Positions 1-62,597 of a DNA stretch of 64,000 nucleotides are shown here, piece after piece; the stretch's first letter is position 1, and each line of letters opens with the position of its first letter. The stretch comes from a virus. The position numbers were made by a program, and so were the translations under genes. The notes beneath the pieces were generated by a model that saw only the letters and a program-made list of their open reading frames with translations, was not told the DNA's origin and made no database searches. The DNA lies in the IMG/VR virus record IMGVR_UViG_3300037470_000672, positions 1 through 64,000 of that record. The stretch is one strand, 5' to 3'.

Positions 1-2
1 AT

Positions 3-419
3 GTCTCGGAATTCCAAAGATCCGAGCATCTTTTCAACCGGCTTGAAGTTGGGGAACGCCTTCCGAAGGTTCTCTGCCAAGTCTCGGAATTCCAAAGATC
101 CGAGCATCTTTTCAACGTGGTTGGCTTGCAAGAAGCCTGTGCGCAACAAGCGCACGAGGTCTCGGAATTCCAAAGATCCGAGCATCTTTTCAACATCCCG
201 ACGATCGCCGGCCTCTCGTCGCTCGCCTCCGAGTCTCGGAATTCCAAAGATCCGAGCATCTTTTCAACGCCGCGCTTGCTCTTCGGCGTGGGCCTTCCAC
301 TGTGTCAGCAGTCTCGGAATTCCAAAGATCCGAGCATCTTTTCAACGTGAGGTCATGCTGCCGGCCGATGCCGTGCCACTTCTGTCTCGGAATTCCAAAG
401 ATCCGAGCATCTTTTCAAC
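3..419 (-). CRISPR. CRISPR array, 6 identical 36-bp repeats and 5 complete spacers (42, 42, 38, 42, 37 nt); probably continues left of the window
   Basis: GTCTCGGAATTCCAAAGATCCGAGCATCTTTTCAAC at 3, 81, 159, 233, 311 and 384. Hairpin CTCGGA/TCCGAG. AT-rich leader-like sequence follows at 420-460. Minus orientation is inferred from the Cas12m-type layout (hairpin followed by AC at the 3' end) and from the cas12-adjacent array. Confidence 0.97.
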
Positions 420-599: not shown

Positions 600-674
600 T
601 GGTACTGGTGGCAGGATTTGAACCTACGTACGCCCCTTTATGAGAGAGGTGCTAAGCCGCTCAGCTACACCAGC
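600..674 (-). tRNA. tRNA with CAT anticodon (elongator Met or Ile2)
   Basis: Cloverleaf; anticodon arm CCTCT-CTCATAA-AGGGG; T loop TTCAAAT; encoded CCA. Confidence 0.9.
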
Positions 675-677
675 ATG

Positions 678-753
678 TGGTGCCCCGGGCAGGTCTCGAC
701 CCTGCAACCTCCGGCTCTTCAAACCAGCGCTCTTCCACCTGAGCTACCGGGGC
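678..753 (-). tRNA. tRNA-Phe(GAA)
   Basis: Acceptor GCCCCGG/CCGGGGC; loop TTGAAGA; encoded CCA. Confidence 0.92.
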
Positions 754-754
754 A

Positions 755-831
755 TGGAGGACCCGCCGGGACTCTCACCCGGTTGATCCCGATTTGCAGT
801 CGGGAGCCTCGACACCTTCGACCTCGGGTCC
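755..831 (-). tRNA. tRNA-Cys(GCA)
   Basis: Acceptor GGACCCG/CGGGTCC; arm CCCGA-CTGCAAA-TCGGG; U73 then CCA. Confidence 0.88.
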
Positions 832-873
832 TGGCAGCCCCACCAGGCCATGATCCTGGAACCTCCGCCTTCA

Positions 874-909
874 GTCTCGGAATTTCAAGGATCCGAGCAT
901 CCTTTCTTC
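874..909 (-). CRISPR. Solitary CRISPR repeat inside the tRNA operon
   Basis: GTCTCGGAATTTCAAGGATCCGAGCATCCTTTCTTC; first 33 nt match the cas12-adjacent repeat. Confidence 0.9.
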
Positions 910-913
910 TAGT

Positions 914-929
914 CCGCCCGTACGGGCGG
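914..929. repeat. Dispersed palindrome CCGCCCGTACGGGCGG, copy 1
   Basis: Perfect 16-bp palindrome, 4 nt from the solitary repeat. Confidence 0.95.
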
Positions 930-994
930 GTTCAACGAGCACCTGAAGTCGTTGTTGTCGACGCTAGCTATCACCTCCGTTTGCGAAAGATTGC

Positions 995-1082
995 TGGTGT
1001 AGCGGGAGGGACTCGAACCCCCAACCACGAAGGGCCTGCCGGGTTACAGCCGGTGACGTCTGCCAATCGACGCTTCCGCTAC
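995..1082 (-). tRNA. tRNA-Tyr(GTA)
   Basis: Acceptor GTAGCGG/CCGCTAC; loop CTGTAAC; long variable arm; CCA. Confidence 0.92.
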
Positions 1083-1086
1083 ATGC

Positions 1087-1160
1087 TGGCGGCGGGAGAG
1101 GGAGTCGAACCCTCACGCCCGGAACCAAAACCCGGGGTCCTACCGTTAGACGATCCCGCT
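1087..1160 (-). tRNA. tRNA-Gln(TTG)
   Basis: Loop TTTTGGT in a CCGG/CCGG stem; T loop TTCGACT; CCA. Confidence 0.9.
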
Positions 1161-1178
1161 ACATCACGCCGGGGTCAT

Positions 1179-1256
1179 TGGCAGGGGAAGCTGGGAGTCG
1201 AACCCGGAACCTACGGGTTTGGAGGCCGTCGCTCTAGCCAGTTGAGCTACTCCCCT
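1179..1256 (-). tRNA. tRNA-Trp(CCA)
   Basis: Acceptor begins AGGGGAG; loop CTCCAAA; G73 then CCA. Confidence 0.92.
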
Positions 1257-1367
1257 TCAGCCCTGCGGATGTCGCGTTTGGCTGAAGGGGCGTCAGTAGT
1301 GCTGAAACTCCTGACACATGCTCGCCGAGGAACGGATCGGGCGCACGCGAGGCGGATGCATTCCTGA

Positions 1368-2727: not shown

Positions 2728-2803
2728 TGGTGCGCCGAGCAGGACTCAAACCTGCGGCCTCTCGTTCCGGAGACGAGCGCTCTGTTCGCTGAGTTACCGG
2801 CGC
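2728..2803 (-). tRNA. tRNA-Arg(CCG)
   Basis: Arm CTCGT-CTCCGGA-ACGAG; acceptor GCGCCGG/TCGGCGC; CCA. Confidence 0.9.
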
Positions 2804-2856
2804 ACGGTGCGCGTTCGCGCGTGCTCAGCGGCGATGGTGTCGTCTTCCATTCCTTA

Positions 2857-3297
2857 CTACTTGTGATCTTTACGACACACACGCTTGGTTTTATTTCTCG
2901 CTCTCCATGCCCTGCGGTACACCCTACTATGTTCGTTCCACGCATTCTTGCAAGGCTCGCATCTACACTTGTGATGCGAGTACCTAGTAAGGGTACCATG
3001 GACAGAGGTCGGACCTGGGTGCGACTTTCTAAGGTTATCCGCTGGTGACAGTATTTGCAGATTTTCTATGTCGTCATTGGTGAAATCGCCGTCGATGTGG
3101 TCTACGTGCTCTTCCTGTCCAAGAAGTCGTCCAAGGTGGACTGACATAAGGTACCTTGCCAAGCTCATAGACCCTCGGTGAGAGTAATCTTTCTTTACGA
3201 GGTGAACGTACCTCCTTTCATTCTTATGGACTGTAGGGCCGTAGACTGTATAACCTTCAAAAGGTGGAGGGGCTGATCTCCCTTTTCTCTCTACCAT
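2857..3297 (-). CDS. HNH endonuclease with C-terminal HGT-x-Y-x-CRC-xx-C motif
   Basis: HVDHIDGDFTNDDIENLQIL HNH motif; HGTLTRYSHHKCRCEPC. Confidence 0.85.
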   Translation of the reverse strand: MVERKGRSAPPPFEGYTVYGPTVHKNERRYVHLVKKDYSHRGSMSLARYLMSVHLGRLLGQEEHVDHIDGDFTNDDIENLQILSPADNLRKSHPGPTSVHGTLTRYSHHKCRCEPCKNAWNEHSRVYRRAWRARNKTKRVCRKDHK

Positions 3298-3342
3298 CTA
3301 AAATCCCATTTAAGATGTCCAAGAGTTTACTCTCACGTTCGG

Positions 3343-3419
3343 TGGGGCCGGTGAAGGTGCTCGAAACCCCATCATGTCCGCTTACAAGGCGGATCGTCTG
3401 CCTCTTGACGTACACCGGC
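3343..3419 (-). tRNA. tRNA-Thr(TGT)
   Basis: Arm TCCGC-CTTGTAA-GCGGA; acceptor GCCGGTG/CACCGGC; CCA. Confidence 0.85.
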
Positions 3420-3439
3420 GCGTTGTCCTCTCTTCCTTC

Positions 3440-3515
3440 TGGATCCTACGACCAGGATCGAACCGGCGACCTCCGCGATACCAGCACGGTGCTCTGCCAT
3501 CTGAGCTACGCAGGC
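3440..3515 (-). tRNA. tRNA-Thr(GGT)
   Basis: Loop CTGGTAT; D arm GCTC/GAGC; T loop TTCGATC; U73 then CCA. Confidence 0.88.
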
Positions 3516-4093
3516 CCACTTGTAGAGACTCTAGACCTAGCCCTTTCCCGAAAGGCCCGCCCCCTTTCGGTATTACCAGCTCGACAAACATCACAGCGGC
3601 ACTTGTGATAGCCGTACATGCTTGCCGTTCCATGATCCGCCTTGCTACGAGGTTTAACCCCTTTCCGTATACGTAGGCTACGATTGTACTCTCGCATGGC
3701 CGATTTACAGGCATCGCAGCGACACTTTTTGTTTACGTACATTACGTACGTACCGTGATCAGAGAATCTTCTACCTAGGTCTTCGACCACGGTTTTCTCA
3801 TTGTGACAAGGACCGCAGAGCAACTGGCAGTTCTTCAGCTCTTCCATCCTTCGAGCATTGTTGACGTAAGCCATCCTGGGGACTTTCATCGTCTTCTTAG
3901 CCCGATCGATGTGGTCAATCTGAAGGTCTTTCTCACTACCACATCGGGCGCACTTTCCCCCCAAGTGGGTTATCATCTCCTTTCGTTTTTCGTGGTATCG
4001 TCTACGCATGTACTCGCGGTAGTAGGCGTTGTACTCCTCTTTGGTCCAGTCTTTGCGCGCCATGCCCCATGGTACGCTGTTAAGACAGGACAT
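3506..4093 (-). CDS. HNH endonuclease with two HGT...CRC-xx-C repeats
   Basis: CARCGSEKDLQIDHID...CQLLCGPCHNEKT (zinc-binding HNH); HGTYVMYVNKKCRCDAC and HGTASMYGYHKCRCDVC. Confidence 0.88.
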   Translation of the reverse strand: MSCLNSVPWGMARKDWTKEEYNAYYREYMRRRYHEKRKEMITHLGGKCARCGSEKDLQIDHIDRAKKTMKVPRMAYVNNARRMEELKNCQLLCGPCHNEKTVVEDLGRRFSDHGTYVMYVNKKCRCDACKSAMREYNRSLRIRKGVKPRSKADHGTASMYGYHKCRCDVCRAGNTERGRAFRERARSRVSTSGPA

Positions 4094-4158
4094 TCAACCG
4101 TTTGTGGTATGGATGCTGTTCCTGTCTAGCTTCGAGCCTTCTTTCCTTTTCAAGTATA

Positions 4159-4234
4159 TGGTGGACTCGATCGGGGTCGAACCGATGACCTTCACCTTGC
4201 AAGGGTGTTGCTCTCCCGACTGAGCTACGAGCCC
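4159..4234 (-). tRNA. tRNA-Ala(TGC)
   Basis: Loop CTTGCAA; acceptor GGGCTCG/CGAGTCC with G3:U70; CCA. Confidence 0.93.
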
Positions 4235-4235
4235 A

Positions 4236-4312
4236 TGGCGGACCAGATGGGAGTCGAACCCACTTCAACCTGTTCGACAAACAGGCGCCTCCTCCGCTTC
4301 GGCTTCTGGTCC
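4236..4312 (-). tRNA. tRNA-Asp(GTC)
   Basis: Arm CCTGT-TTGTCGA-ACAGG; G73 then CCA. Confidence 0.9.
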
Positions 4313-4509
4313 TCGACGTTGTCCCTTCATGCGCCGAACCCCCTCCCCGTCTTCTCGACGGCCAGAGGGGGTTCGATGAACCTGGACGTCGAGATCTGAG
4401 CTAGGTGCGGCTGTCTTCCACGCGCGTATTCCCGCGGGTGAAGATCATGGAGATGGCGGTGCGCTTCGCTTCTGTGAGCACTCGCTCGCTCTCTGTCGAG
4501 GCTTTTCTG

Positions 4510-4586
4510 TGGTCGGGGCGGCGGGATTCGAACCCGCGACTTCCGGTACCCAAAACCGGCGCGCTACCAGCCTGCGCCACACCCCG
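4510..4586 (-). tRNA. tRNA-Pro(TGG)
   Basis: Acceptor begins CGGGGTG; arm CCGGT-TTTGGGT-ACCGG; CCA. Confidence 0.93.
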
Positions 4587-33870: not shown

Positions 33871-33906
33871 GTCTCGGAATTTCAAAGATCCGAGCATCCG
33901 TTCACC
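33871..33906 (-). CRISPR. Solitary CRISPR repeat
   Basis: GTCTCGGAATTTCAAAGATCCGAGCATCCGTTCACC, 40 nt past the stop of 33947-34174. Confidence 0.9.
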
Positions 33907-33946: not shown

Positions 33947-34174
33947 CTAGGCGGCTGAGGGCGGAGTGAAGCCAGGGTCTGTCGGCTCCCCCGCAAGCCC
34001 CTCCAAGAGGACGAGCTTGCCGTCCTTCTCGGAGAAGACTTGCTCAGCCTCGGCCGCTACCTCGTGAGCAGTAACCGCCAGCATCTTCAGCCGGGACAGT
34101 CCAGGCTGAATGGCGCCCTCACGGCGGAGCAACTCGGCGAATGTGAGCGCCTGAAGCATCTCTTGGCGGGTCAC
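33947..34174 (-). CDS. Hypothetical protein, 75 aa
   Basis: GTG start overlapping the stop of the upstream ORF. Confidence 0.6.
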   Translation of the reverse strand: MTRQEMLQALTFAELLRREGAIQPGLSRLKMLAVTAHEVAAEAEQVFSEKDGKLVLLEGLAGEPTDPGFTPPSAA

Positions 34175-34345: not shown

Positions 34346-34381
34346 GTCTCGGAATTTCAAGGACCTGAGCATCCACTCAAG
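34346..34381 (-). CRISPR. Solitary degenerate CRISPR repeat in a gene junction
   Basis: GTCTCGGAATTTCAAGGACCTGAGCATCCACTCAAG; overlaps the stop of 34377-34739 and lies 22 nt upstream of the ATG at 34323. Confidence 0.85.
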
Positions 34382-34739
34382 CGACCGCAGGCATCCAGCG
34401 AAACCCCATGAACTGAAAGATCCTGCGCAGCTCCTTGGTGAGCTTCAAACGGTCTTTCTCCGTCTTCACCTTCACCGTGTGCAGGTATTCACAATCGGTC
34501 CGCGACGGGGCGTCCAGAACCAGGCGCACCGACACCAAGCCGGAGTCCAAGCAGCGCAACTCACCTCGGAAATCTCGGTTCGCAACCAACGTGAAATCGA
34601 CCCCCACACCCGGCAAACCTCGCTTCCGAGTGCACAAAAGGTCCAAGCCGAACATCTCCAGCACAGACAGGAGCCGAGCCATGTTCTGGCCGCTCAGGGC
34701 GTCGCTCTTCAATCTTCGTAAGACCTCAGATAACGGCAC
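34377..34739 (-). CDS. Hypothetical protein, 120 aa
   Basis: ORF between two repeats. Confidence 0.6.
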   Translation of the reverse strand: MPLSEVLRRLKSDALSGQNMARLLSVLEMFGLDLLCTRKRGLPGVGVDFTLVANRDFRGELRCLDSGLVSVRLVLDAPSRTDCEYLHTVKVKTEKDRLKLTKELRRIFQFMGFRWMPAVA

Positions 34740-35342: not shown

Positions 35343-35378
35343 GTCTCGGAATTTCAAAGATCCGAGCATCTTTTCAAG
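35343..35378 (-). CRISPR. Solitary CRISPR repeat in the 5' UTR of the XRE gene
   Basis: GTCTCGGAATTTCAAAGATCCGAGCATCTTTTCAAG; 14 nt from the ATG at 35328. Confidence 0.92.
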
Positions 35379-36452: not shown

Positions 36453-37424
36453 TCATGCCGCCATCAGGCAGGCGTTCTCGGCCTTGAGTCGCTCGATTTC
36501 GGCCTTCATCTCGGCCAGGGTCATCTCGCTGGCTTTCTTGTCCTTGGCCGGCTTGGGCGCCTGCTCCTCGACGAAGGTGAGGATCTCTGCCGTCGCCTTC
36601 TGCACCCGGTCCGCCACCTTCTCGACCTTCTCCGGGTCGGAGCCGCTCCAGTGCGCGACGTAGCCAAAGGAGTAGCTGGCAGAGTCGACCCCCAGCGCGC
36701 TCATGACGCAGTAGGCCACGCTCTCGGCCTCCACCTCGCGGTAGTCCGTGGGGGTGTGGCACAAGCCCGACTCCTTGCTGTGCAGGATGACGTGGGCCAG
36801 CTCGTGGGCCAGGGTCTTGGCCTGCTGTGCCGGGCTGTTGGCCTCGTTGAGCGCGATGCGCTTCTCCGAGAAGACCACGTAGCCGCCCATGCCGTCGATC
36901 ATGCGCTCGGTCTCGATCGTGTAGCCCTTCTTTTGGGCCAGGTTGCTGAGCGCCGTGAACGCGAGGTCAGCGGCCGGAGACGAGCCGTCGAGGGTCTGGA
37001 TGACGTCCAGCTCGGGCAGGTCCGGACCCTCGGTCTGCGCGATGTCGTAGACGAAGACGGTCTTGAAGAATCGAACGAAGCGGTAGGGCTTCTCCTGCCC
37101 GTCTTCCGTCCGCTTACCCCAGCCGAAGATGGGGGCGCGGATGGCGATCTTTTTCTCGCTGGCCTTCACCCGACGACCGGTGCGGGTCTCCCACTGCCGA
37201 CGCCCCATGACGCGCGAGGCGCCCGGACGCTGGAGGTGGATGAGGAGCTGGTTGGTCCAGGAATACTTCCAGAACATCGCCTGGAAGGCGAGGAACTGGA
37301 CCCAGGCGTTCGAACCGATGAGCGCTTCGACGCCGCGCTTCATCTGCTCGACGAGGTCTTTCGCCTCGCTCTCCTTCTGGGCTTTGAACTGCGCCTTCTG
37401 GTCGGGAGTGAACTGCTTGCCCAT
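36453..37424 (-). CDS. ardC: ArdC-family ssDNA-binding antirestriction protein with a metallopeptidase-like C-terminal domain
   Basis: YSWTNQLLIHLQRP...QW...GRRVK.SEK; TLAHELAH; EVEAESVAY. Confidence 0.85.
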   Translation of the reverse strand: MGKQFTPDQKAQFKAQKESEAKDLVEQMKRGVEALIGSNAWVQFLAFQAMFWKYSWTNQLLIHLQRPGASRVMGRRQWETRTGRRVKASEKKIAIRAPIFGWGKRTEDGQEKPYRFVRFFKTVFVYDIAQTEGPDLPELDVIQTLDGSSPAADLAFTALSNLAQKKGYTIETERMIDGMGGYVVFSEKRIALNEANSPAQQAKTLAHELAHVILHSKESGLCHTPTDYREVEAESVAYCVMSALGVDSASYSFGYVAHWSGSDPEKVEKVADRVQKATAEILTFVEEQAPKPAKDKKASEMTLAEMKAEIERLKAENACLMAA

Positions 37425-40097: not shown

Positions 40098-40133
40098 GTC
40101 TCGGAATTTCAAGGATCCGAGCATCCTTTCAAC
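40098..40133 (-). CRISPR. Solitary CRISPR repeat downstream of the second tRNA cluster
   Basis: Identical to the cas12-adjacent repeat, GTCTCGGAATTTCAAGGATCCGAGCATCCTTTCAAC. Confidence 0.95.
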
Positions 40134-40204: not shown

Positions 40205-40289
40205 TGGCAGCGGGCAGCGGAATCGAACCACGACGCCTAAGCGCCCTCCAGTTTTCAAGACTGGTCGCTCCCCATGAGCAGTACCCGCT
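40205..40289 (-). tRNA. tRNA-Ser(TGA)
   Basis: Arm CCAGT-CTTGAAA-ACTGG; long variable arm; G73 then CCA. Confidence 0.88.
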
Positions 40290-40297
40290 TCATGTAG

Positions 40298-40389
40298 TGG
40301 TGGCCCGAGCGAGAGTCGAACTCGCATGCCCCTCACAAGGCACCAGGGTCTGAGCCTGGCGTGTCTACCGGAAATTCCACCATCGGGCC
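40298..40389 (-). tRNA. tRNA-Leu(CAG)
   Basis: Arm CCAGG-CTCAGAC-CCTGG; long variable arm; CCA. Confidence 0.9.
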
Positions 40390-40393
40390 ATTG

Positions 40394-40466
40394 TGCGGAC
40401 GGCAGGAGTCGAACCTGCACTGACCGGGATTTGACGCCGGACCCTCTGCCGTTGGGGTACGTCCGC
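40394..40466 (-). tRNA. Atypical tRNA, most likely anticodon CAA (Leu), with a short variable loop
   Basis: Acceptor GCGGACG/CGTCCGC; T arm GCAGG-TTCGACT-CCTGC; anticodon arm CCGGC-GTCAAAT-CCCGG with a C:C pair; no encoded CCA. Confidence 0.7.
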
Positions 40467-42137: not shown

Positions 42138-42173
42138 GTCTCGGAATTTCAAAGATCCGAGCATCTTTTCAAC
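42138..42173 (-). CRISPR. Solitary CRISPR repeat
   Basis: GTCTCGGAATTTCAAAGATCCGAGCATCTTTTCAAC; about 34 nt of unique sequence and then an A9 run follow on the minus strand. Confidence 0.95.
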
Positions 42174-43467: not shown

Positions 43468-43503
43468 GTCTCGGAATTTCAAGGATCCGAGCATCCATTT
43501 AAC
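43468..43503 (-). CRISPR. CRISPR repeat downstream of the type IV-B operon; possible decayed partner at 43559-43586
   Basis: GTCTCGGAATTTCAAGGATCCGAGCATCCATTTAAC; 55 nt away is GTCTCGGcgAATTTttGGATCCGAcacc. Confidence 0.9.
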
Positions 43504-44422: not shown

Positions 44423-45040
44423 TTACTCCCAGGCGCGGGAGAACTCCCGGTCGCGGAAGGCGTCGGCGAGCCCTGTGATCTGCTTGAGCCGCAAGACTTC
44501 GTCCGGATCCATGCCCAGTTCTTGGCTAATCCGCTCGTTGCTCCAGTGATGTTTGGTCAACGCCGTCACGAGCTTGGCGCTCAGCTCCACCTGATGCGTC
44601 CCACGAGCCAGGTTGTGCCGCACGGTGGACGTCATCCGGTCCTGAACACCCTTGTTCAGCTCCACCAGGGGGATGTAGCCACCCAAAGACTCCCGAATAT
44701 CCTCCCGGTTCTGGATAACGGTAGTGCGATGGAAACCGTCCACCACCACGTAGTCACCGGCATAAGGGTCTTTGGCTGCGACAATGGGCATCGTCACCCC
44801 ATCCTTCCGGATGGAAAATTCCAAAAGCTTCATCTCCGGCGGGGCAACGACGTTGGGGTTGTAATCATTGCCCTTGACCTGCTCAGACGGGACCAGCTTC
44901 ACGCCTGTTACAGGGTGGGGGAGCCCGAGGAATGCTTGGAGTGCTTCGCTGATCTCGTTGAAGACCTTCACACGCTCGTCGAGCGACAAGTCTGCGCTTT
45001 CGGCCAGGGTACGCTTGAACGCTTCCAAGTCATCCCACAT
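44423..45040 (-). CDS. ibrB: IbrB/YbdM-like ParB/Srx-domain protein
   Basis: NDYNPNVVAPPEMKLLEFSIRKDGVTMPIV...VVDGFHR...STVRHNLARGTH. Confidence 0.9.
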   Translation of the reverse strand: MWDDLEAFKRTLAESADLSLDERVKVFNEISEALQAFLGLPHPVTGVKLVPSEQVKGNDYNPNVVAPPEMKLLEFSIRKDGVTMPIVAAKDPYAGDYVVVDGFHRTTVIQNREDIRESLGGYIPLVELNKGVQDRMTSTVRHNLARGTHQVELSAKLVTALTKHHWSNERISQELGMDPDEVLRLKQITGLADAFRDREFSRAWE

Positions 45041-46313
45041 CACGCGCCTCCGAAAACCGTGCAATCAGAGAAAGCTGGCGCTCCATCTCCCGCTTGGTAG
45101 GGGAGAAACTCAACCCCTTTACCCAGTAATCGTTCTTGAGCAGTACCTTCACAATCCTGCGCCAAGAGGGAAGGCGGCATCTGACTCCGTTCACGAGCAG
45201 CCCGGATTCTAGGCGCTTGTCGGGGCATGCGTCGGGGATACCCTTCGTCCAGTCCGGGAGAAGATTGGCTTCACGAAGCGCCCTTACCATTGGCTCATCG
45301 TTGCGGTGTTTGCGCCACCAACGGAGGAAGGTGCGGATCTTGGTCCGATAGTGCGCAGCGATGTTGGGGGGCATGGTGTTGAGCAACAGCTTCGCGTAGC
45401 TCTTGTGCGTGTGTCCCGGAGGAAGAACCACCTTGAGGTTGCCCATGATGTGGGACTGTGTCTTGGAGTAGCGGCTCCCGTAGTTGGCCCCTTCTACACG
45501 AGCGACCACTTTGGTCCATGTTTCGGGTTCCAGGAGCTTGAAGAGGTAGAGCCCTTTGCGCTGGTCATCACCATAGGGCTGGCAAAGGCGCATCTGATGC
45601 AGCGTCAACCCAGCTAAGTGCATGAGGTCGTAGATTCTGTTGTAATCCCAGCCGAGCTTGCCGTTGGCGGTCCAAACGTCCTCGGTAGTCCAATCGTAAA
45701 TGGGGTAGGCGTTGCACACCGTATCGGACAACCAGGTGGTCCACATGCGACCATCCAGGGTATCCTTGTGGGTGTTCTTGATAGTCCGATAGCGGTTGAG
45801 GCTCTCGTCGCTACGAATGGCGACCAAGCAAGCGGTCTTGGAGCCATCAGCGAACCACCCCCCAAACTCAGGGACGAATTCCTCAAACTCCATCCCCTTG
45901 CGGAAGAAGGGGAAGAAACCGGGGTCTGAGATCACGCCCCTGTGCTCAGGAAGCGGACGGATCCAAGCGTCGCGCTTGTCCGGATCCCAACACATCCAAT
46001 GCGGCTGAATCTGAGATACAGCATTCCGAAGATGGATGGGAAGACATACCCACCAAGGCCGGATATCTTGTGTAGCGAACACCCGTTGGACGTAGCTGAT
46101 CGTATGTGCGTACTGACCTTCCAAATCGACCAGAAGAACATCCAGAGGAAGACGTCCCAACTCCCTGGCGGCCCCCAAGGCCAGGTTGAGTAATACTCCG
46201 CTGTCCTTACCCCCGCTGAAGGACAGGTAGACCTTGTCAAAATGGGCGTAGATTTCGCGAATCCGCCGTCGGGCAGCACAGAGCACATCCTCGGTCAGGT
46301 ACGTCTTCGGCAT
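45030..46313 (-). CDS. ibrA: IbrA/YbdN-like PAPS-reductase/DUF3440 protein
   Basis: LSFSGGKDS; WVCLPIHLRNAVS; IRSDESLNRY; YPIYDW; MRLCQPYGDDQR; WRRIVKVLLKNDYW. Confidence 0.92.
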   Translation of the reverse strand: MPKTYLTEDVLCAARRRIREIYAHFDKVYLSFSGGKDSGVLLNLALGAARELGRLPLDVLLVDLEGQYAHTISYVQRVFATQDIRPWWVCLPIHLRNAVSQIQPHWMCWDPDKRDAWIRPLPEHRGVISDPGFFPFFRKGMEFEEFVPEFGGWFADGSKTACLVAIRSDESLNRYRTIKNTHKDTLDGRMWTTWLSDTVCNAYPIYDWTTEDVWTANGKLGWDYNRIYDLMHLAGLTLHQMRLCQPYGDDQRKGLYLFKLLEPETWTKVVARVEGANYGSRYSKTQSHIMGNLKVVLPPGHTHKSYAKLLLNTMPPNIAAHYRTKIRTFLRWWRKHRNDEPMVRALREANLLPDWTKGIPDACPDKRLESGLLVNGVRCRLPSWRRIVKVLLKNDYWVKGLSFSPTKREMERQLSLIARFSEARDVG

Positions 46314-54979: not shown

Positions 54980-55977
54980 TCACTTGGTCGTCGCTTCGAC
55001 GGGACGAAGAGGTTCCCCTGTGCGCAACCGATGGAAGAAGTACCGAAACATCTCCACCTGGAAAATGAACTGGAAGGTCAGGCCACAGACACTCGGCGGA
55101 TCGTCGGTGTGGAGCCGCATGACTTCGCGCTTCTCGTACCAGGCTTCGTAGAACGCATGCTCGTGGTCGAAGTGACGTGCGCGCACGCCGTCGACGAACT
55201 GCTTTTCCTTCTCCGCCCAAGAATCGAACTGGTCCTCCTCCAGAGCACGCTGTGCCTCCTCTGCAACCTCATCAAGGTAGCGGGTGATCAAAGCCGGCTG
55301 GAAATCTTCGATCCCTACCCGACCTGGAACCTTCTCTGCGATGTAGGTCAAGTCGTAGTCGTAACGCTGGCGAGGAAGAAGCTGCCGTTCGAGCCAAAGC
55401 ATCGCGTTGGCGTCGTTCGGCCTGAAAAAGACCTCCCCTGCGTCTCCGTAGGCCATCAGCATTCCGGGAGCGCGAAGGATCCTCATCCAGTAAGCCCAGT
55501 GGTGAGGACGTCCTTTGGGGCGTATGAAGAGCCACTGGTTCTCGTTCTCTTGCTTGACCTCGTGCTCAGCGAACACCCTCATCGCTAGCTTCCGGGCATC
55601 CTCACGAACGGACGGCAGGTAGGTAGCTCGACTCATTCGGACCCCCACAACGACGGATCGATCGGGGCGTCGTCCCCCTGGGTTTTGTCTGGCTTGATGC
55701 CCAGAACCGTTTGCTGGCGTTTACCGATGGCTTCGACAGCATCATGAGCAGGTGGATGCAATCCCATGCAGACAGCTTTGGCGTCTTCGTAGGCGTTGTT
55801 TACAGCACGTTCGACGTTCTCATTGGCGCGTCGAACCAGGGTGTCGGCGTCCTGTTGGATCTGAGTAAACAGCTCGACCACCTCATCGAAGACACAGTCG
55901 CGCATGCGGGCGCGAAGGGTTTTGGAGGTAGATTCAGCCTTGGTCAGCGCGGCTTCGACTCGTTCCTCGATCGTCAA
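54980..55977 (-). other. Two hypothetical ORFs (54980-55648, 55633-55977)
   Basis: Colinear ORFs downstream of the mini-array. Confidence 0.65.
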
Positions 55978-55988
55978 AATATACCCCT

Positions 55989-56172
55989 GTATCGGAATTC
56001 CATATATCCGAGCATCTTTTCATCCCCACGCACGCCTCGAACGCCCGTAGCTGCCCACTCGTGTCTCGGAATTTCAAGGATCCGAGCATCCTTTCAACCA
56101 GTCGAGCTACCGCACGGCGACGGTCGCGTCGCTCTTGTCTCGGAATTTCAAGGATCCGAGCATCCTTTCAAC
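55989..56172 (-). CRISPR. Mini-array of 3 repeats and 2 spacers of 38 nt directly downstream of the cas12 gene
   Basis: Repeats at 56137 and 56063 (identical) and at 55989 (degenerate, distal). The first repeat is 23 nt from the cas12 stop. Confidence 0.95.
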
Positions 56173-56195: not shown

Positions 56196-57974
56196 TTACT
56201 CACCTCCATCAGCGCTTTGCAAGCGCCGCGCTTGCTGCTCTTCGAGCATCCCGCGAAATCGTTGCTGCCTTCGGGAAAGCACCTTCTTTCCACTGTCTTG
56301 ACCCTCGCGAGCGCCTTCCTCGACAGGCGTCACCGCCGGGGCTCTCGCGAGCAGGTTGTGCGCGGCGTTCTCGTCCTGATCCCACTCCGCGCCACACTGT
56401 TCACACGTGTAGCGGAGTTTGGCTGCCTGGTCCCAGGTGTTGCGGTGCTGACAGCAGTGACAATCCGTTGTCGTCCACTCGGCTGGTACCTCGGCAATAT
56501 CGGCACCTCGCCGGCCGCATGCGTTGTGGATGCGCTGGCGCAGGTCTGATACGCAGGCGACAAATCGCCCGTAGTTCTGCTTGCGCTGGTCGCGGGTGCC
56601 TTCTTCGGCATCGCCCCGCTTAGTCGCGTCACGCAGGTCAAACTTCTCCAGCACCACTCGCGAATAGGCGGTGCTGAGCGTGTTGGCGAACTGCCGGTAC
56701 ACCTCTCGTCGCTGGCGCAGAACCCGGCGCGACTCCTCAACCTCCCACTGCCCAAGGTGCAAGTCGTTGCGGCGCCACGCCTCCAGTCGCTCCACCAGGT
56801 CGGCAGGCATCTGGTCACGATGCTCGTCGTAGAGCCGCAGGACCCGTCGTGGGTTGCGCCAGAGATGGACGTGCGCGGGGTCTGCGCCCATCGCCTCGTG
56901 GTCGACTGTCTGGAGCCATGCGTGGATGCGGGGCTTGACCTCGTCGAATATCTTATCCCGCACAGCTCGGATGCTGTCTGCATGCTGGTCCTTGCGCAGC
57001 ATCATGGCGGGGAGCCGCAGCTCGCCCTCGCGGCCGAATTCGTCGACCCAGTAGGCGACGCGCAGACTGCCGTCGTCAAGTAGCCGCCAGCCGACGTCGA
57101 TCGCTACGGTGCCGTGGCCGCATGCGACCTTTTCAGGCTCGGCGTCGACGACGAACTGCACCTTCCACACGTATCGGGTCGCGCGCTTTTGGCGTAGCAA
57201 GTGGACCCACTTGATCCGTCCCGCGGGCAACGGCTGATGGTAGTCGATGGGGATGACGGCGAAGATCGGATCGCGGCCTTCGCTGCCGACGCGAAAGCGC
57301 ATCACGGTCTTCTGTAGCCGCCGGCGCCCCTTGCGCGAATCGGATTGGGCGGTCGGTCGTTCGATCCAGCAGCGCGTGTCGGGCTCGTGGATGAGCGCAG
57401 CATCCAGCCCGCCCTGAAGCTGGACCGCGAGATGTCCGTTACCGGTCCAGCGCTTGAAGTGCGGGTCCGCGATTGCTTTGCTGGCCTGTTCGACCGCCTG
57501 CTCCACGATGAGGTACGTGCCCCAGTACAGACCGGACGCAGCGCGGGCGCTTTTCACCTGGTCGGCGGCCGTCTTGTTGACGTCCGCTAGCGCCGTCTGA
57601 ACAACGGCGTCGTCCGCAATGAGTGCTTTAGCAACGCGAAGGTCGGCGCGAGCCGCCTTCAGGCGAGGCTTCAGCTCGCAGGCGCGGTCTCGCAACATCT
57701 GCGTCGCCAGCTTGGCAGCCGAGCGGGTTTGGCGACGTAGGAGGTTGATCTCCGCGCGCACGTTGTGCAGTTCATCGGCCAGTGTTTTGACCTCGCCTGC
57801 GAGCTTTTCGGTGTCGGGGTGACCTTCGAGCACTTCGCGCACCTTCTGGCGCCGCGCTCGCTCGATCTCGACAAGCGCGTTGTGATAACGATGCGCCAAG
57901 TGCATCTGATCACTGACCAGGTCAGCCATGTCAGTCGCTGTTTTAGCGCGGTACTCGTAAATACGGACTGTCAT
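56196..57974 (-). CDS. cas12m: Cas12m-like (type V-M/V-U1) compact effector, 592 aa
   Basis: LAHRYHNALVEIE, GLYWGTY, FKRWTGNGHLAVQLQ, RuvC-I VAIDVGWR, RuvC-II VVLEKFD, zinc finger CHCC..CEQC and RuvC-III WDQDENAA. These parallel MmCas12m motifs as I recall them. A cognate mini-array is adjacent. Confidence 0.85.
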   Translation of the reverse strand: MTVRIYEYRAKTATDMADLVSDQMHLAHRYHNALVEIERARRQKVREVLEGHPDTEKLAGEVKTLADELHNVRAEINLLRRQTRSAAKLATQMLRDRACELKPRLKAARADLRVAKALIADDAVVQTALADVNKTAADQVKSARAASGLYWGTYLIVEQAVEQASKAIADPHFKRWTGNGHLAVQLQGGLDAALIHEPDTRCWIERPTAQSDSRKGRRRLQKTVMRFRVGSEGRDPIFAVIPIDYHQPLPAGRIKWVHLLRQKRATRYVWKVQFVVDAEPEKVACGHGTVAIDVGWRLLDDGSLRVAYWVDEFGREGELRLPAMMLRKDQHADSIRAVRDKIFDEVKPRIHAWLQTVDHEAMGADPAHVHLWRNPRRVLRLYDEHRDQMPADLVERLEAWRRNDLHLGQWEVEESRRVLRQRREVYRQFANTLSTAYSRVVLEKFDLRDATKRGDAEEGTRDQRKQNYGRFVACVSDLRQRIHNACGRRGADIAEVPAEWTTTDCHCCQHRNTWDQAAKLRYTCEQCGAEWDQDENAAHNLLARAPAVTPVEEGAREGQDSGKKVLSRRQQRFRGMLEEQQARRLQSADGGE

Positions 57975-62423: not shown

Positions 62424-62521
62424 GTGCCCGGCTCTTTCATTTCCGAGACGTACCCTCAATCCGCCCGTACGGGCGGATCGGGGTTGAAGAGAGGGTGCTC
62501 AGATCCTTGGAATTCCAAGAC
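62415..62521 (+). CRISPR. Two decayed repeats in the opposite (plus) orientation, with a palindrome-containing spacer between them
   Basis: About 62415-62449 ...GGTGCCCGGCTCTTTCATTTCCGAGAC and 62483/62486-62521 GTTGAAgagAGGGTGCTCAGATCCTTGGAATTCCAAGAC. Confidence 0.65.
62457..62479. repeat. Dispersed palindrome, copy 6
   Basis: CAATCCGCCCGTACGGGCGGATC. Confidence 0.95.
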
Positions 62522-62561
62522 CGACGCGCTGTCAGCAACACCAACCCGAGCCGTCTTAGGT

Positions 62562-62597
62562 GTCTCGGAATTTCAAGGATCCGAGCATCCTTTCCGG
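62562..62597 (-). CRISPR. Solitary CRISPR repeat facing the plus-strand repeat across 40 nt
   Basis: GTCTCGGAATTTCAAGGATCCGAGCATCCTTTCCGG. Confidence 0.92.

Follow-up and report, generated by a model that had tools for sequence, protein, structure and literature searches.

A putative type V-M Cas12m system of a soil or sediment phage and copies of its repeat between the phage genes

The cas12m gene and its arrays

The DNA considered here (the window, 64,000 nt) comprises positions 1 to 64,000 of the 175,906-bp IMG/VR virus record IMGVR_UViG_3300037470_000672; coordinates preceded by G000 refer to the whole record. Its minus strand carries the gene for a Cas12m effector (P0001), which is present as a single copy in the virus record and is followed, in the same orientation, by a small CRISPR array. 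The record also encodes a portal protein, a UvsX-like recombinase, a ribonucleotide reductase, an RNase H, a DprA-like protein, and 13 tRNAs, and all long open reading frames (ORFs), essentially all genes, are located on the minus strand. The gene and the arrays that share its repeat are the following:

56196-57974, minus strand: cas12m gene encoding a D-E-D-type V-M effector of 592 aa (ORF, phmmer, AlphaFold2/Foldseek)
55989-56172, minus strand: cas12m-adjacent mini-array with three repeats and two spacers (sequence and covariance model)
56172-56137 and 56098-56063, minus strand: mini-array repeats 1 and 2, identical, 36 nt (covariance model, E = 2e-12 and 2e-12)
56024-55989, minus strand: terminal repeat of the mini-array, degenerate (covariance model, E = 6e-9)
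56136-56099 and 56062-56025, minus strand: mini-array spacers, 38 nt each
1-419, minus strand: main array with six identical repeats and five spacers of 37-42 nt (pattern search, BLAST, covariance model)
G000 78460-78562: further two-repeat unit

The cas12m ORF runs through 592 codons without a stop. Given the E values obtained with the covariance model, the repeats of the mini-array are not a product of chance. A preliminary description of the window had placed a two-spacer mini-array 23 nt after the cas12m stop codon, which was borne out, the first repeat starting at 56172 on the minus strand and the spacers being 38 nt long; as an account of the arrays it was incomplete, because the mini-array is neither the sole nor the largest one with that repeat. 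The next ORF (TTG at 55977) begins 11 nt past the terminal repeat. The repeat of the main array is a variant that is three positions off the cas12m-adjacent one. Upstream of the main array, which is located just downstream of a tRNA cluster, lies an AT-rich leader (~420-470) similar to the sequence preceding the mini-array; at its other side, the main array runs into the end of the record and resumes at the opposite end. The arrays are situated on the coding strand inside rows of genes, with no space for promoters of their own. No anti-repeat was found beside either of them, and the sole inverted degenerate copy of the repeat (62486-62521) pairs with its own neighboring repeat. Pfam models for Cas1, Cas2, and Cas4 had no match across the whole 175,906-bp record, while the positive controls were detected; the lack of adaptation genes, which had been stated for the window, holds for the entire 175.9 kb.

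Contigs from many sequencing runs of soil and sediment contain the locus with hardly any change. In contigs of four other runs, the cas12m gene and the spacers of the mini-array had no differences at all, although Logan contigs break at every repeat and apparent joints in them are repeat artefacts, which makes them uninformative on array variation beyond the identical spacers. The repeat core had no other holder in IMG/VR or the JGI metagenomes, and megablast of the locus against phages returned nothing.

A stretch of 119 nt within the main array is common to both ends of the record (window 1-119; G000 175765-175906), and the assembly therefore closes on itself and is merely broken in the array; although the record is labelled as linear with 83% completeness, the genome is probably whole and either circular or permuted. 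At the right end of the record, the last 119 nt of the main array are followed by unique sequence, and the tail of spacer 1 is joined directly to the repeat preceding spacer 5, representing either a variant without spacers 2-4 or an assembly jump.

The effector and its RuvC triad

When P0001 was compared with the sequences of the Protein Data Bank (PDB) by phmmer, the best match was 23vw_A, deposited as "CRISPR-associated DNA-binding protein Cas12m" (E = 2e-80, residues 18-544). The next were GoCas12m (8pm4; E = 3e-23) and 23vu (E = 2e-14), with UnCas12m4a third in rank, whereas TnpB-like and Cas12f chains were matched in the C-terminal part only, at E values of 7e-5 or higher. The AlphaFold2 model of P0001, based on 74 homologs, had a predicted local distance difference test (pLDDT) score of 92.9 and a predicted template-modeling (pTM) score of 0.84. 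It comprised a WED domain, REC1, a coiled-coil REC2, and a RuvC domain with an inserted zinc-finger TNB, the coiled-coil REC region being formed by four long helices across residues 17-147. Foldseek aligned the model over its full length (~600 columns) with Cas12m2 (8hhl) and GoCas12m (8pm4) at a template-modeling (TM) score of 0.80, compared with ~0.4 for Cas12f and TnpB (0.36-0.43 for TnpB structures when normalized to the query). The zinc finger is of the four-cysteine (CCCC) type (C505/C508/C524/C527), located just upstream of D534 in the protein, and is invariant in 23 of 23 close homologs; the nearest database relative of P0001 is 48% identical. Several features by which a V-M system is recognized are present, namely homology over the full length, the Cas12m fold, an array in the same orientation whose repeat is predicted to form a pseudoknot handle with AC at its end, and the lack of an adaptation module. 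The non-canonical RuvC triad (HDD, NDD, etc.) of the founding members is not found in P0001, which is not disqualifying.

The only Pfam match of P0001 was a Cas12f1-like TNB domain. As Pfam and NCBIfam see nothing beyond the TnpB/Cas12f-type C-terminal TNB and RuvC part, and as the source records call relatives "transposase", the gene might be regarded as an ordinary transposon TnpB that merely adjoins repeats. The chance of this is close to negligible. Placement by hidden Markov models, which the preliminary description had named as a check, did not group P0001 with ordinary TnpB: the NCBIfam TnpB models reached the C-terminal 130 aa only and scored 53 bits against a cut-off of 100, and every TnpB model stayed well under its cut-off. 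In addition, the protein has 592 aa with a REC coiled coil, its best matches in sequence and fold are Cas12m over the full length, and the single-copy gene is accompanied by a co-oriented array with a Cas12m-type repeat. Judged by the predicted fold, P0001 is neither a TnpB nor an intermediate in architecture but a complete Cas12m, in which the coiled-coil REC insertion is present. The designation as a phage-borne Cas12m-like effector was, thus, apt, on account of the full-length homology and fold and of a virus record with a portal protein and a UvsX-like recombinase.

The positions of the RuvC triad were set by alignment with the solved Cas12m chains and 22 homologs, and the codons were read on the sequence:

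57096-57098, minus strand: codon GAC of D293 in RuvC-I, motif VAIDVGW (D in 19 of 23 close homologs, N in two, H in two)
56646-56648, minus strand: codon GAG of E443 in RuvC-II, motif VVLEKF (E in 21 of 23 close homologs, H in one, D in one)
56373-56375, minus strand: codon GAC of D534 in RuvC-III, motif DQDENA (invariant in 23 of 23 close homologs)

The acidic residues previously noticed at all three RuvC positions were, thus, correctly assigned, D293, E443, and D534 being placed by the alignment on RuvC-I, -II, and -III. The meaning attached to them, that D-E-D may point to a protein able to cut DNA under RNA guidance or to one in transition from TnpB-like nucleases to silencing Cas12m, found no support, because tested D-E-D relatives bind without cutting and the predicted fold is fully that of Cas12m. 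In favor of a nuclease, none of the three residues is missing, D534 does not vary, and most close homologs have D and E at the other two positions. The Cas12m family has been split by the triad into four clades, clades 3 and 4 of which contain DED, NED, or DND, and the authors of that study left open two-metal chemistry in the D-E-D clades (PMC10442227). However, four D-E-D, two H-D-D, and two N-D-D orthologs were characterized by Bigelyte et al (2024; PMC11013384), and all three kinds showed PAM (protospacer adjacent motif)-dependent binding but no cleavage of double-stranded DNA. Purified D-E-D MsCas12m cleaved neither target DNA nor target RNA and had no collateral activity, and its D274A mutant still processed precursor CRISPR RNA (pre-crRNA) (PMC11013384). 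Likewise, converting the triad of Cas12m2 from HDD to DED failed to restore cleavage (PMC10442227). In Cas12m2, the triad holds the displaced strand via one magnesium ion (PMC10442227), and this role would explain why acidic residues are kept without catalysis. Among the 23 nearest homologs, N or H takes the place of D in RuvC-I in four and H or D that of E in RuvC-II in two, a pattern more in keeping with a binding site than with an indispensable active site, and a complete Cas12m fold (TM 0.80, vs only ~0.4 for TnpB and Cas12f) argues in the same direction. A nuclease or transitional form is, on balance, improbable, and we estimate the chance that this ortholog truly cleaves its target at about one in eight. 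P0001 is no evidence for a cutting Cas12m; it is a new member of a known family, in which its D-E-D triad is ordinary.

Within that family, P0001 most resembles the MsCas12m-type D-E-D orthologs (PMC11013384) and 23vw_A, which have the same length (~580-600 aa), domain order, D-E-D triad, and CCCC zinc finger; a 36-nt repeat and no adaptation genes are further traits in common with the locus described here, and no trans-activating crRNA has been reported for them. P0001 is, however, only ~37% identical to MsCas12m/23vw_A and is phage-encoded. MmCas12m2 and GoCas12m (Wu 2022; Omura 2023; PMC10442227) share the fold (TM 0.80), the pseudoknot plan, and the AC end of the repeat, but are 22-23% identical to P0001, have an H-D-D triad, and are encoded on actinobacterial chromosomes or plasmids. 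As a compact and diverged ortholog (48% to the nearest relative), P0001 is useful for surveys of PAMs and binding. After the RuvC-III helix, at residues ~560-575 (window 56250-56295), P0001 carries a basic tail motif, S-x-R/K-Q-x-R-x-R, which is common in close homologs and missing from the aligned solved Cas12m chains; in the model, a low-confidence linker precedes it.

Copies of the repeat outside the arrays

A pattern search of the whole genome for the repeat core resulted in 27 matches, all 27 on the minus strand, and in none in the reversed control. A covariance model built from the copies gave 33 matches at a threshold of E ≤ 1, with 31 located on the minus strand. The copies outside the arrays comprise 14 strong solitary ones, four worn ones, and one that is inverted:

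874-909, minus strand: solitary repeat inside a tRNA cluster (covariance model, 59.9 bits)
33871-33906, minus strand: intergenic solitary repeat, 40 nt past the stop codon of ORF 33947-34174
34346-34381, minus strand: solitary repeat that overlaps the stop codon of ORF 34377-34739, its end being 22 nt upstream of ATG 34323
35343-35378, minus strand: solitary repeat with its end 14 nt upstream of ATG 35328, the start codon of a helix-turn-helix (HTH)-regulator-like gene
40098-40133, minus strand: solitary repeat that closely follows three tRNA genes, at a distance of 104 nt from the next ORF
42138-42173, minus strand: solitary repeat, intergenic, 134 nt before ATG 42003
43468-43503, minus strand: intergenic solitary repeat with a promoter-like site (43385-43357) and ATG 43350 downstream of it
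62562-62597, minus strand: solitary repeat, followed by a 40-nt spacer and an inverted degenerate copy on the plus strand (62486-62521; 57.2 and 36.5 bits)
G000 126270, 128577, 142359, 145787, 163394, and 166455: strong solitary copies beyond the window
G000 120496, 127873, 141240, and 148699: worn solitary copies

Most solitary copies occupy the narrow space that separates one gene from the next in the same direction. They begin 0-40 nt after the upstream stop codon (two overlap it, one follows after 2 nt and one after 5 nt), and about 10 of them end 4-46 nt before the next start codon, including the copies after the portal gene, before the UvsX-like gene, and before the HTH-regulator gene. 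Three copies are 104-134 nt away from the next gene; two of these have promoter-like sites downstream and not upstream, and would therefore be the tails of transcripts. A common motif upstream of the solitary copies was not seen. The possibility that the repeat itself is a sigma-70-like promoter was rejected, as a -10 element at a suitable spacing is lacking. The transcript of 62486-62597 would form a long repeat:anti-repeat hairpin (-57.6 kcal/mol, z-score -4.9), directly after a strong terminator-like hairpin (62633-62610).

Positions 1-7 of the repeat vary among the copies, whereas positions 8-36 are nearly fixed. The latter correspond to the portion that is retained in the mature crRNA of Cas12m2 and PmCas12m (Cas12m2: PMC10442227). 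The two helices of the predicted pseudoknot, 8-11:18-21 and 13-17:30-34, are paired in 96% of the alignment cells. Columns 8 and 21 covary, being G-C in 10 distinct copies, A-U in five, and G-U in two, and never unpaired; a shuffle control reached this covariation in 2-5 of 500 trials, and it has to be considered that related copies inflate such counts. Both the topology of the repeat and its terminal AC just before the guide match the published handles of PmCas12m and Cas12m2, and the repeats of two other phage systems (phage G001 and Virus Rctr197k, see below) follow the same plan with different letters. The conservation and covariation of the handle are stronger arguments for function than its placement. 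They also bear on whether the solitary copies are neutral debris of array recombination. Arrays do recombine, and the right end of the record shows a variant array without spacers 2-4; however, conservation selectively affects the part that forms the mature handle, the pseudoknot covaries, 31 of 33 copies have the same orientation and are mostly intergenic in a tightly packed genome, and the pattern recurs in two systems with unrelated repeats. We consider debris a highly improbable explanation.

The handle, thus, occurs ~20 more times outside the two arrays, on the strand of the genes and mostly between them, from which we infer that Cas12m also meets it on phage transcripts. With a probability of roughly 70%, the locus represents a complete V-M Cas12m system that the ~176-kb soil or sediment phage carries for its own use, with a binding-only silencer that also encounters the handle on the transcripts of the phage. 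In such a system, Cas12m would be made from the row of genes in which it lies, and the arrays would be transcribed together with their neighbors. Going by the tested relatives, the protein would cut its own pre-crRNA, load RNAs consisting of the handle and a guide of ~17-20 nt, and tightly bind matching, PAM-flanked double-stranded DNA without cutting it, which would block transcription or replication of a rival element or of a host gene; the acidic triad would serve to hold the displaced strand in a metal-mediated manner and not to hydrolyze it. Binding without cutting is the mode by which the tested orthologs protect cells from phages and plasmids. On the long transcripts of the phage, Cas12m would meet the same handle and either excise guide-like RNAs or dock on the transcripts and cut them next to ribosome-binding sites. 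PmCas12m cuts after repeat nucleotide 2-3 and again 17-18 nt into the guide; similar cuts at the solitary copies would sever messages near the downstream ribosome-binding site and release guide-like RNAs with phage sequence. The phage DNA at the solitary copies would be spared because, as in any array, the end of the repeat stands in the position of the PAM. It is possible, although less likely than not, that the handle has spread through the phage operons as a layer of control. Cas12m, after its synthesis, would dock at ~20 transcript sites and cut them near ribosome-binding sites or lift guides from them, and a CRISPR effector would thereby time or tune the expression of the phage genes, and possibly mark self against near relatives, besides silencing rivals.

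Several points weigh against the proposal that the system silences by binding and also acts on phage transcripts. The triad is intact and D534 invariant, which leaves room for catalysis. The co-orientation of the copies and their closeness to start codons are partly unavoidable, because all genes are on one strand and the gaps are short, and would be expected in part of any intergenic insertion. Two copies (G000 126270 and 127873) lie inside long ORFs, the former in frame within an ORF of 531 aa. Finally, no protospacer was identified in the phage's own genome, INPHARED, PLSDB, or IMG/VR, and, hence, no class of target and no PAM: the cas12m-adjacent spacers had no other match in the genome at up to three mismatches, BLAST of the main array against the genome found repeats only, matches to INPHARED phages and PLSDB plasmids had E values of 0.1-1, and 22-nt seeds of four spacers matched nothing in IMG/VR. 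In the JGI metagenomes, the first 24 nt of spacer 1 of the main array recur at the 3′ terminus of a gene for a cytochrome P450, located on two actinomycete-like contigs with 69% GC (L043 7952-9118 and L042), which also carry SARP, PucR, and glutamine-synthetase genes. A further 5 nt resemble the end of the repeat; the flank is not T- or C-rich, the remaining spacer diverges, and an estimated ~0.01-0.2 such matches are expected by chance. This match is either a borderline lead, to host or target, or a chance event, and is not taken as a target.

Instead of acting on the messages of their own phage, or in addition to it, the solitary repeats may turn the adjacent phage sequence into guides against relatives that lack the insertion, and in which the PAM is therefore kept, resulting in superinfection exclusion. 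Unique phage sequence follows each solitary handle, self-targeting would be avoided exactly as in arrays by the repeat end replacing the PAM, and viral mini-arrays are known to target relatives (PMC11656645). A 22-nt direct duplication around the copy after the portal gene suggests an insertion. However, flanking duplications were found at one of 12 copies examined, there is no common upstream motif, and no relative of the phage was found in IMG/VR or the JGI metagenomes that could be inspected for PAM-flanked sites. We consider this explanation doubtful, although less so than a nuclease. The duplication (95% identical), which flanks the copy at G000 128577-128658 right after the portal gene and includes the end of the portal ORF, may be an insertion scar; no relative of the gene after the portal gene was found, and so there is no insertion-free homologous junction for comparison. 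The copy at G000 126270-126305 lies within the last 60 codons of the 531-aa ORF; an internal ATG that has a good ribosome-binding site immediately precedes it, and the tail of this ORF may be translated separately, as a small protein.

Solitary repeats outside arrays have precedents in viral solitary repeat units and RNA anti-CRISPRs (Racr) (Faure 2019; Camara-Wilpert 2023; PMC10651486) and in CRISPR repeat-like regulatory RNAs (crlRNA/CreR; Shmakov 2023), where binding to a Cas protein is likewise expected. As viral units of this kind are known to act as decoys (PMC10651486), the copies described here could soak up a V-M effector of the host. The known units mimic the system of a host and are, as a rule, single, driven by a promoter of their own, and unlinked to cas genes. 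In the present phage, ~20 copies per genome are co-oriented with the genes, often without space for a promoter, and it is the phage itself that encodes the cognate effector and the arrays. Many copies abut the upstream stop codon (several at 0-5 nt), leaving no room for the promoter typical of Racr, and the promoter-like sites at two copies are downstream of them. Moreover, no array with this repeat was present in 185,579 species genomes, the 21 single matches (18 fixed bases) comparing with ~17 expected by chance. A role as decoy is unlikely, and we attach very little weight to it.

More than P0001 itself, it is the wider locus that matters, in which a phage owns the effector, static arrays are embedded in operons, and an RNA handle is multiplied between genes. 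If Cas12m does act on the copies, CRISPR effectors in phages would have a second job, the handling of the phage's own messages, and the same habit with unrelated repeats would mean that large phages generally use V-M systems in a way not yet described. The natural set of protein-RNA docking sites could be copied for the synthetic control of operons.

Related phage systems and the genome around the locus

Copies of a Cas12m repeat are dispersed in a second phage as well. Phage G001, a complete genome of 109.8 kb with direct terminal repeats, encodes a Cas12m that is 33% identical to P0001 and has a different repeat, of which there are seven array copies and eight solitary ones; 14 of the 15 are oriented as cas12m, and the solitary ones again lie between genes. 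Directly upstream of its cas12m (L018 9700-9960), a promoter-like sequence and a two-repeat mini-array are present, which could serve self-regulation of the effector. The GenBank record of Virus Rctr197k (KX853510) contains a Cas12m homolog and an array of 22 repeats, which have gone unrecognized since deposition, and one solitary copy 63 kb away from the array. A second array of Rctr197k, with an unrelated 36-nt repeat, is located beside a gene annotated as "transposase-like protein" (L020 580-834) and may belong to another type V system of this virus.

Phage or prophage V-M systems as such are not new. A 2024 review places V-M in plasmids and some prophages, and, according to a 2026 preprint, the myxophage MV-1 carries MvCas12m (D305/E463/D555) with an array next to it (bioRxiv 10.64898/2026.09.14.751636). 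MvCas12m and the Rctr197k homolog resemble the present system in being phage D-E-D Cas12m proteins encoded next to an array, without cas1, cas2, or cas4 and without spacer targets found. A single array beside the gene is described for them, whereas here there are two arrays, a further mini-array, and ~18 solitary handles genome-wide. The preprint infers nuclease activity of MvCas12m from D-E-D, which is contradicted by the tested orthologs. No description of an organization in which the handle is dispersed around cas12m was found in the literature searched. TldR proteins (TnpB-like nuclease-dead repressors) are also of the TnpB lineage, act as RNA-guided DNA binders in gene control, and are sometimes used by prophages. 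They are, however, short, lack a D-E-D triad, and use omega-type guide RNAs instead of CRISPR arrays; apart from the RuvC core in common, no relation in sequence to P0001 was seen.

For the immediate neighbors of cas12m, no function was obtained from Pfam or PHROGs. The 13 tRNA genes of the record include clusters at window positions 600-1257, 2728-4586, and 40205-40466. The main array begins ~180 nt after a tRNA-Met/Phe pair, and solitary repeats are found inside or just after two of the tRNA clusters, as if tRNAs and guide RNAs shared transcripts. Between the solitary repeat at 874-909 and tRNA-Phe, ~120 nt on the minus strand (754-873) appear tRNA-like by eye, with anticodon-type and T-arm-type hairpins, and were not called by ARAGORN or Rfam. 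The portal gene (G000 128618-132745) encodes 1375 aa with HNH-endonuclease-like matches at residues ~200-370, which suggests an intein or a fused homing endonuclease. In the same row of genes as cas12m, on the minus strand, are a 3′-phosphoadenosine 5′-phosphosulfate (PAPS)-reductase-like gene (45030-46313) and a metalloprotease- or anti-restriction-like gene (36453-37424), for which functions in host takeover or counter-defense are possible.

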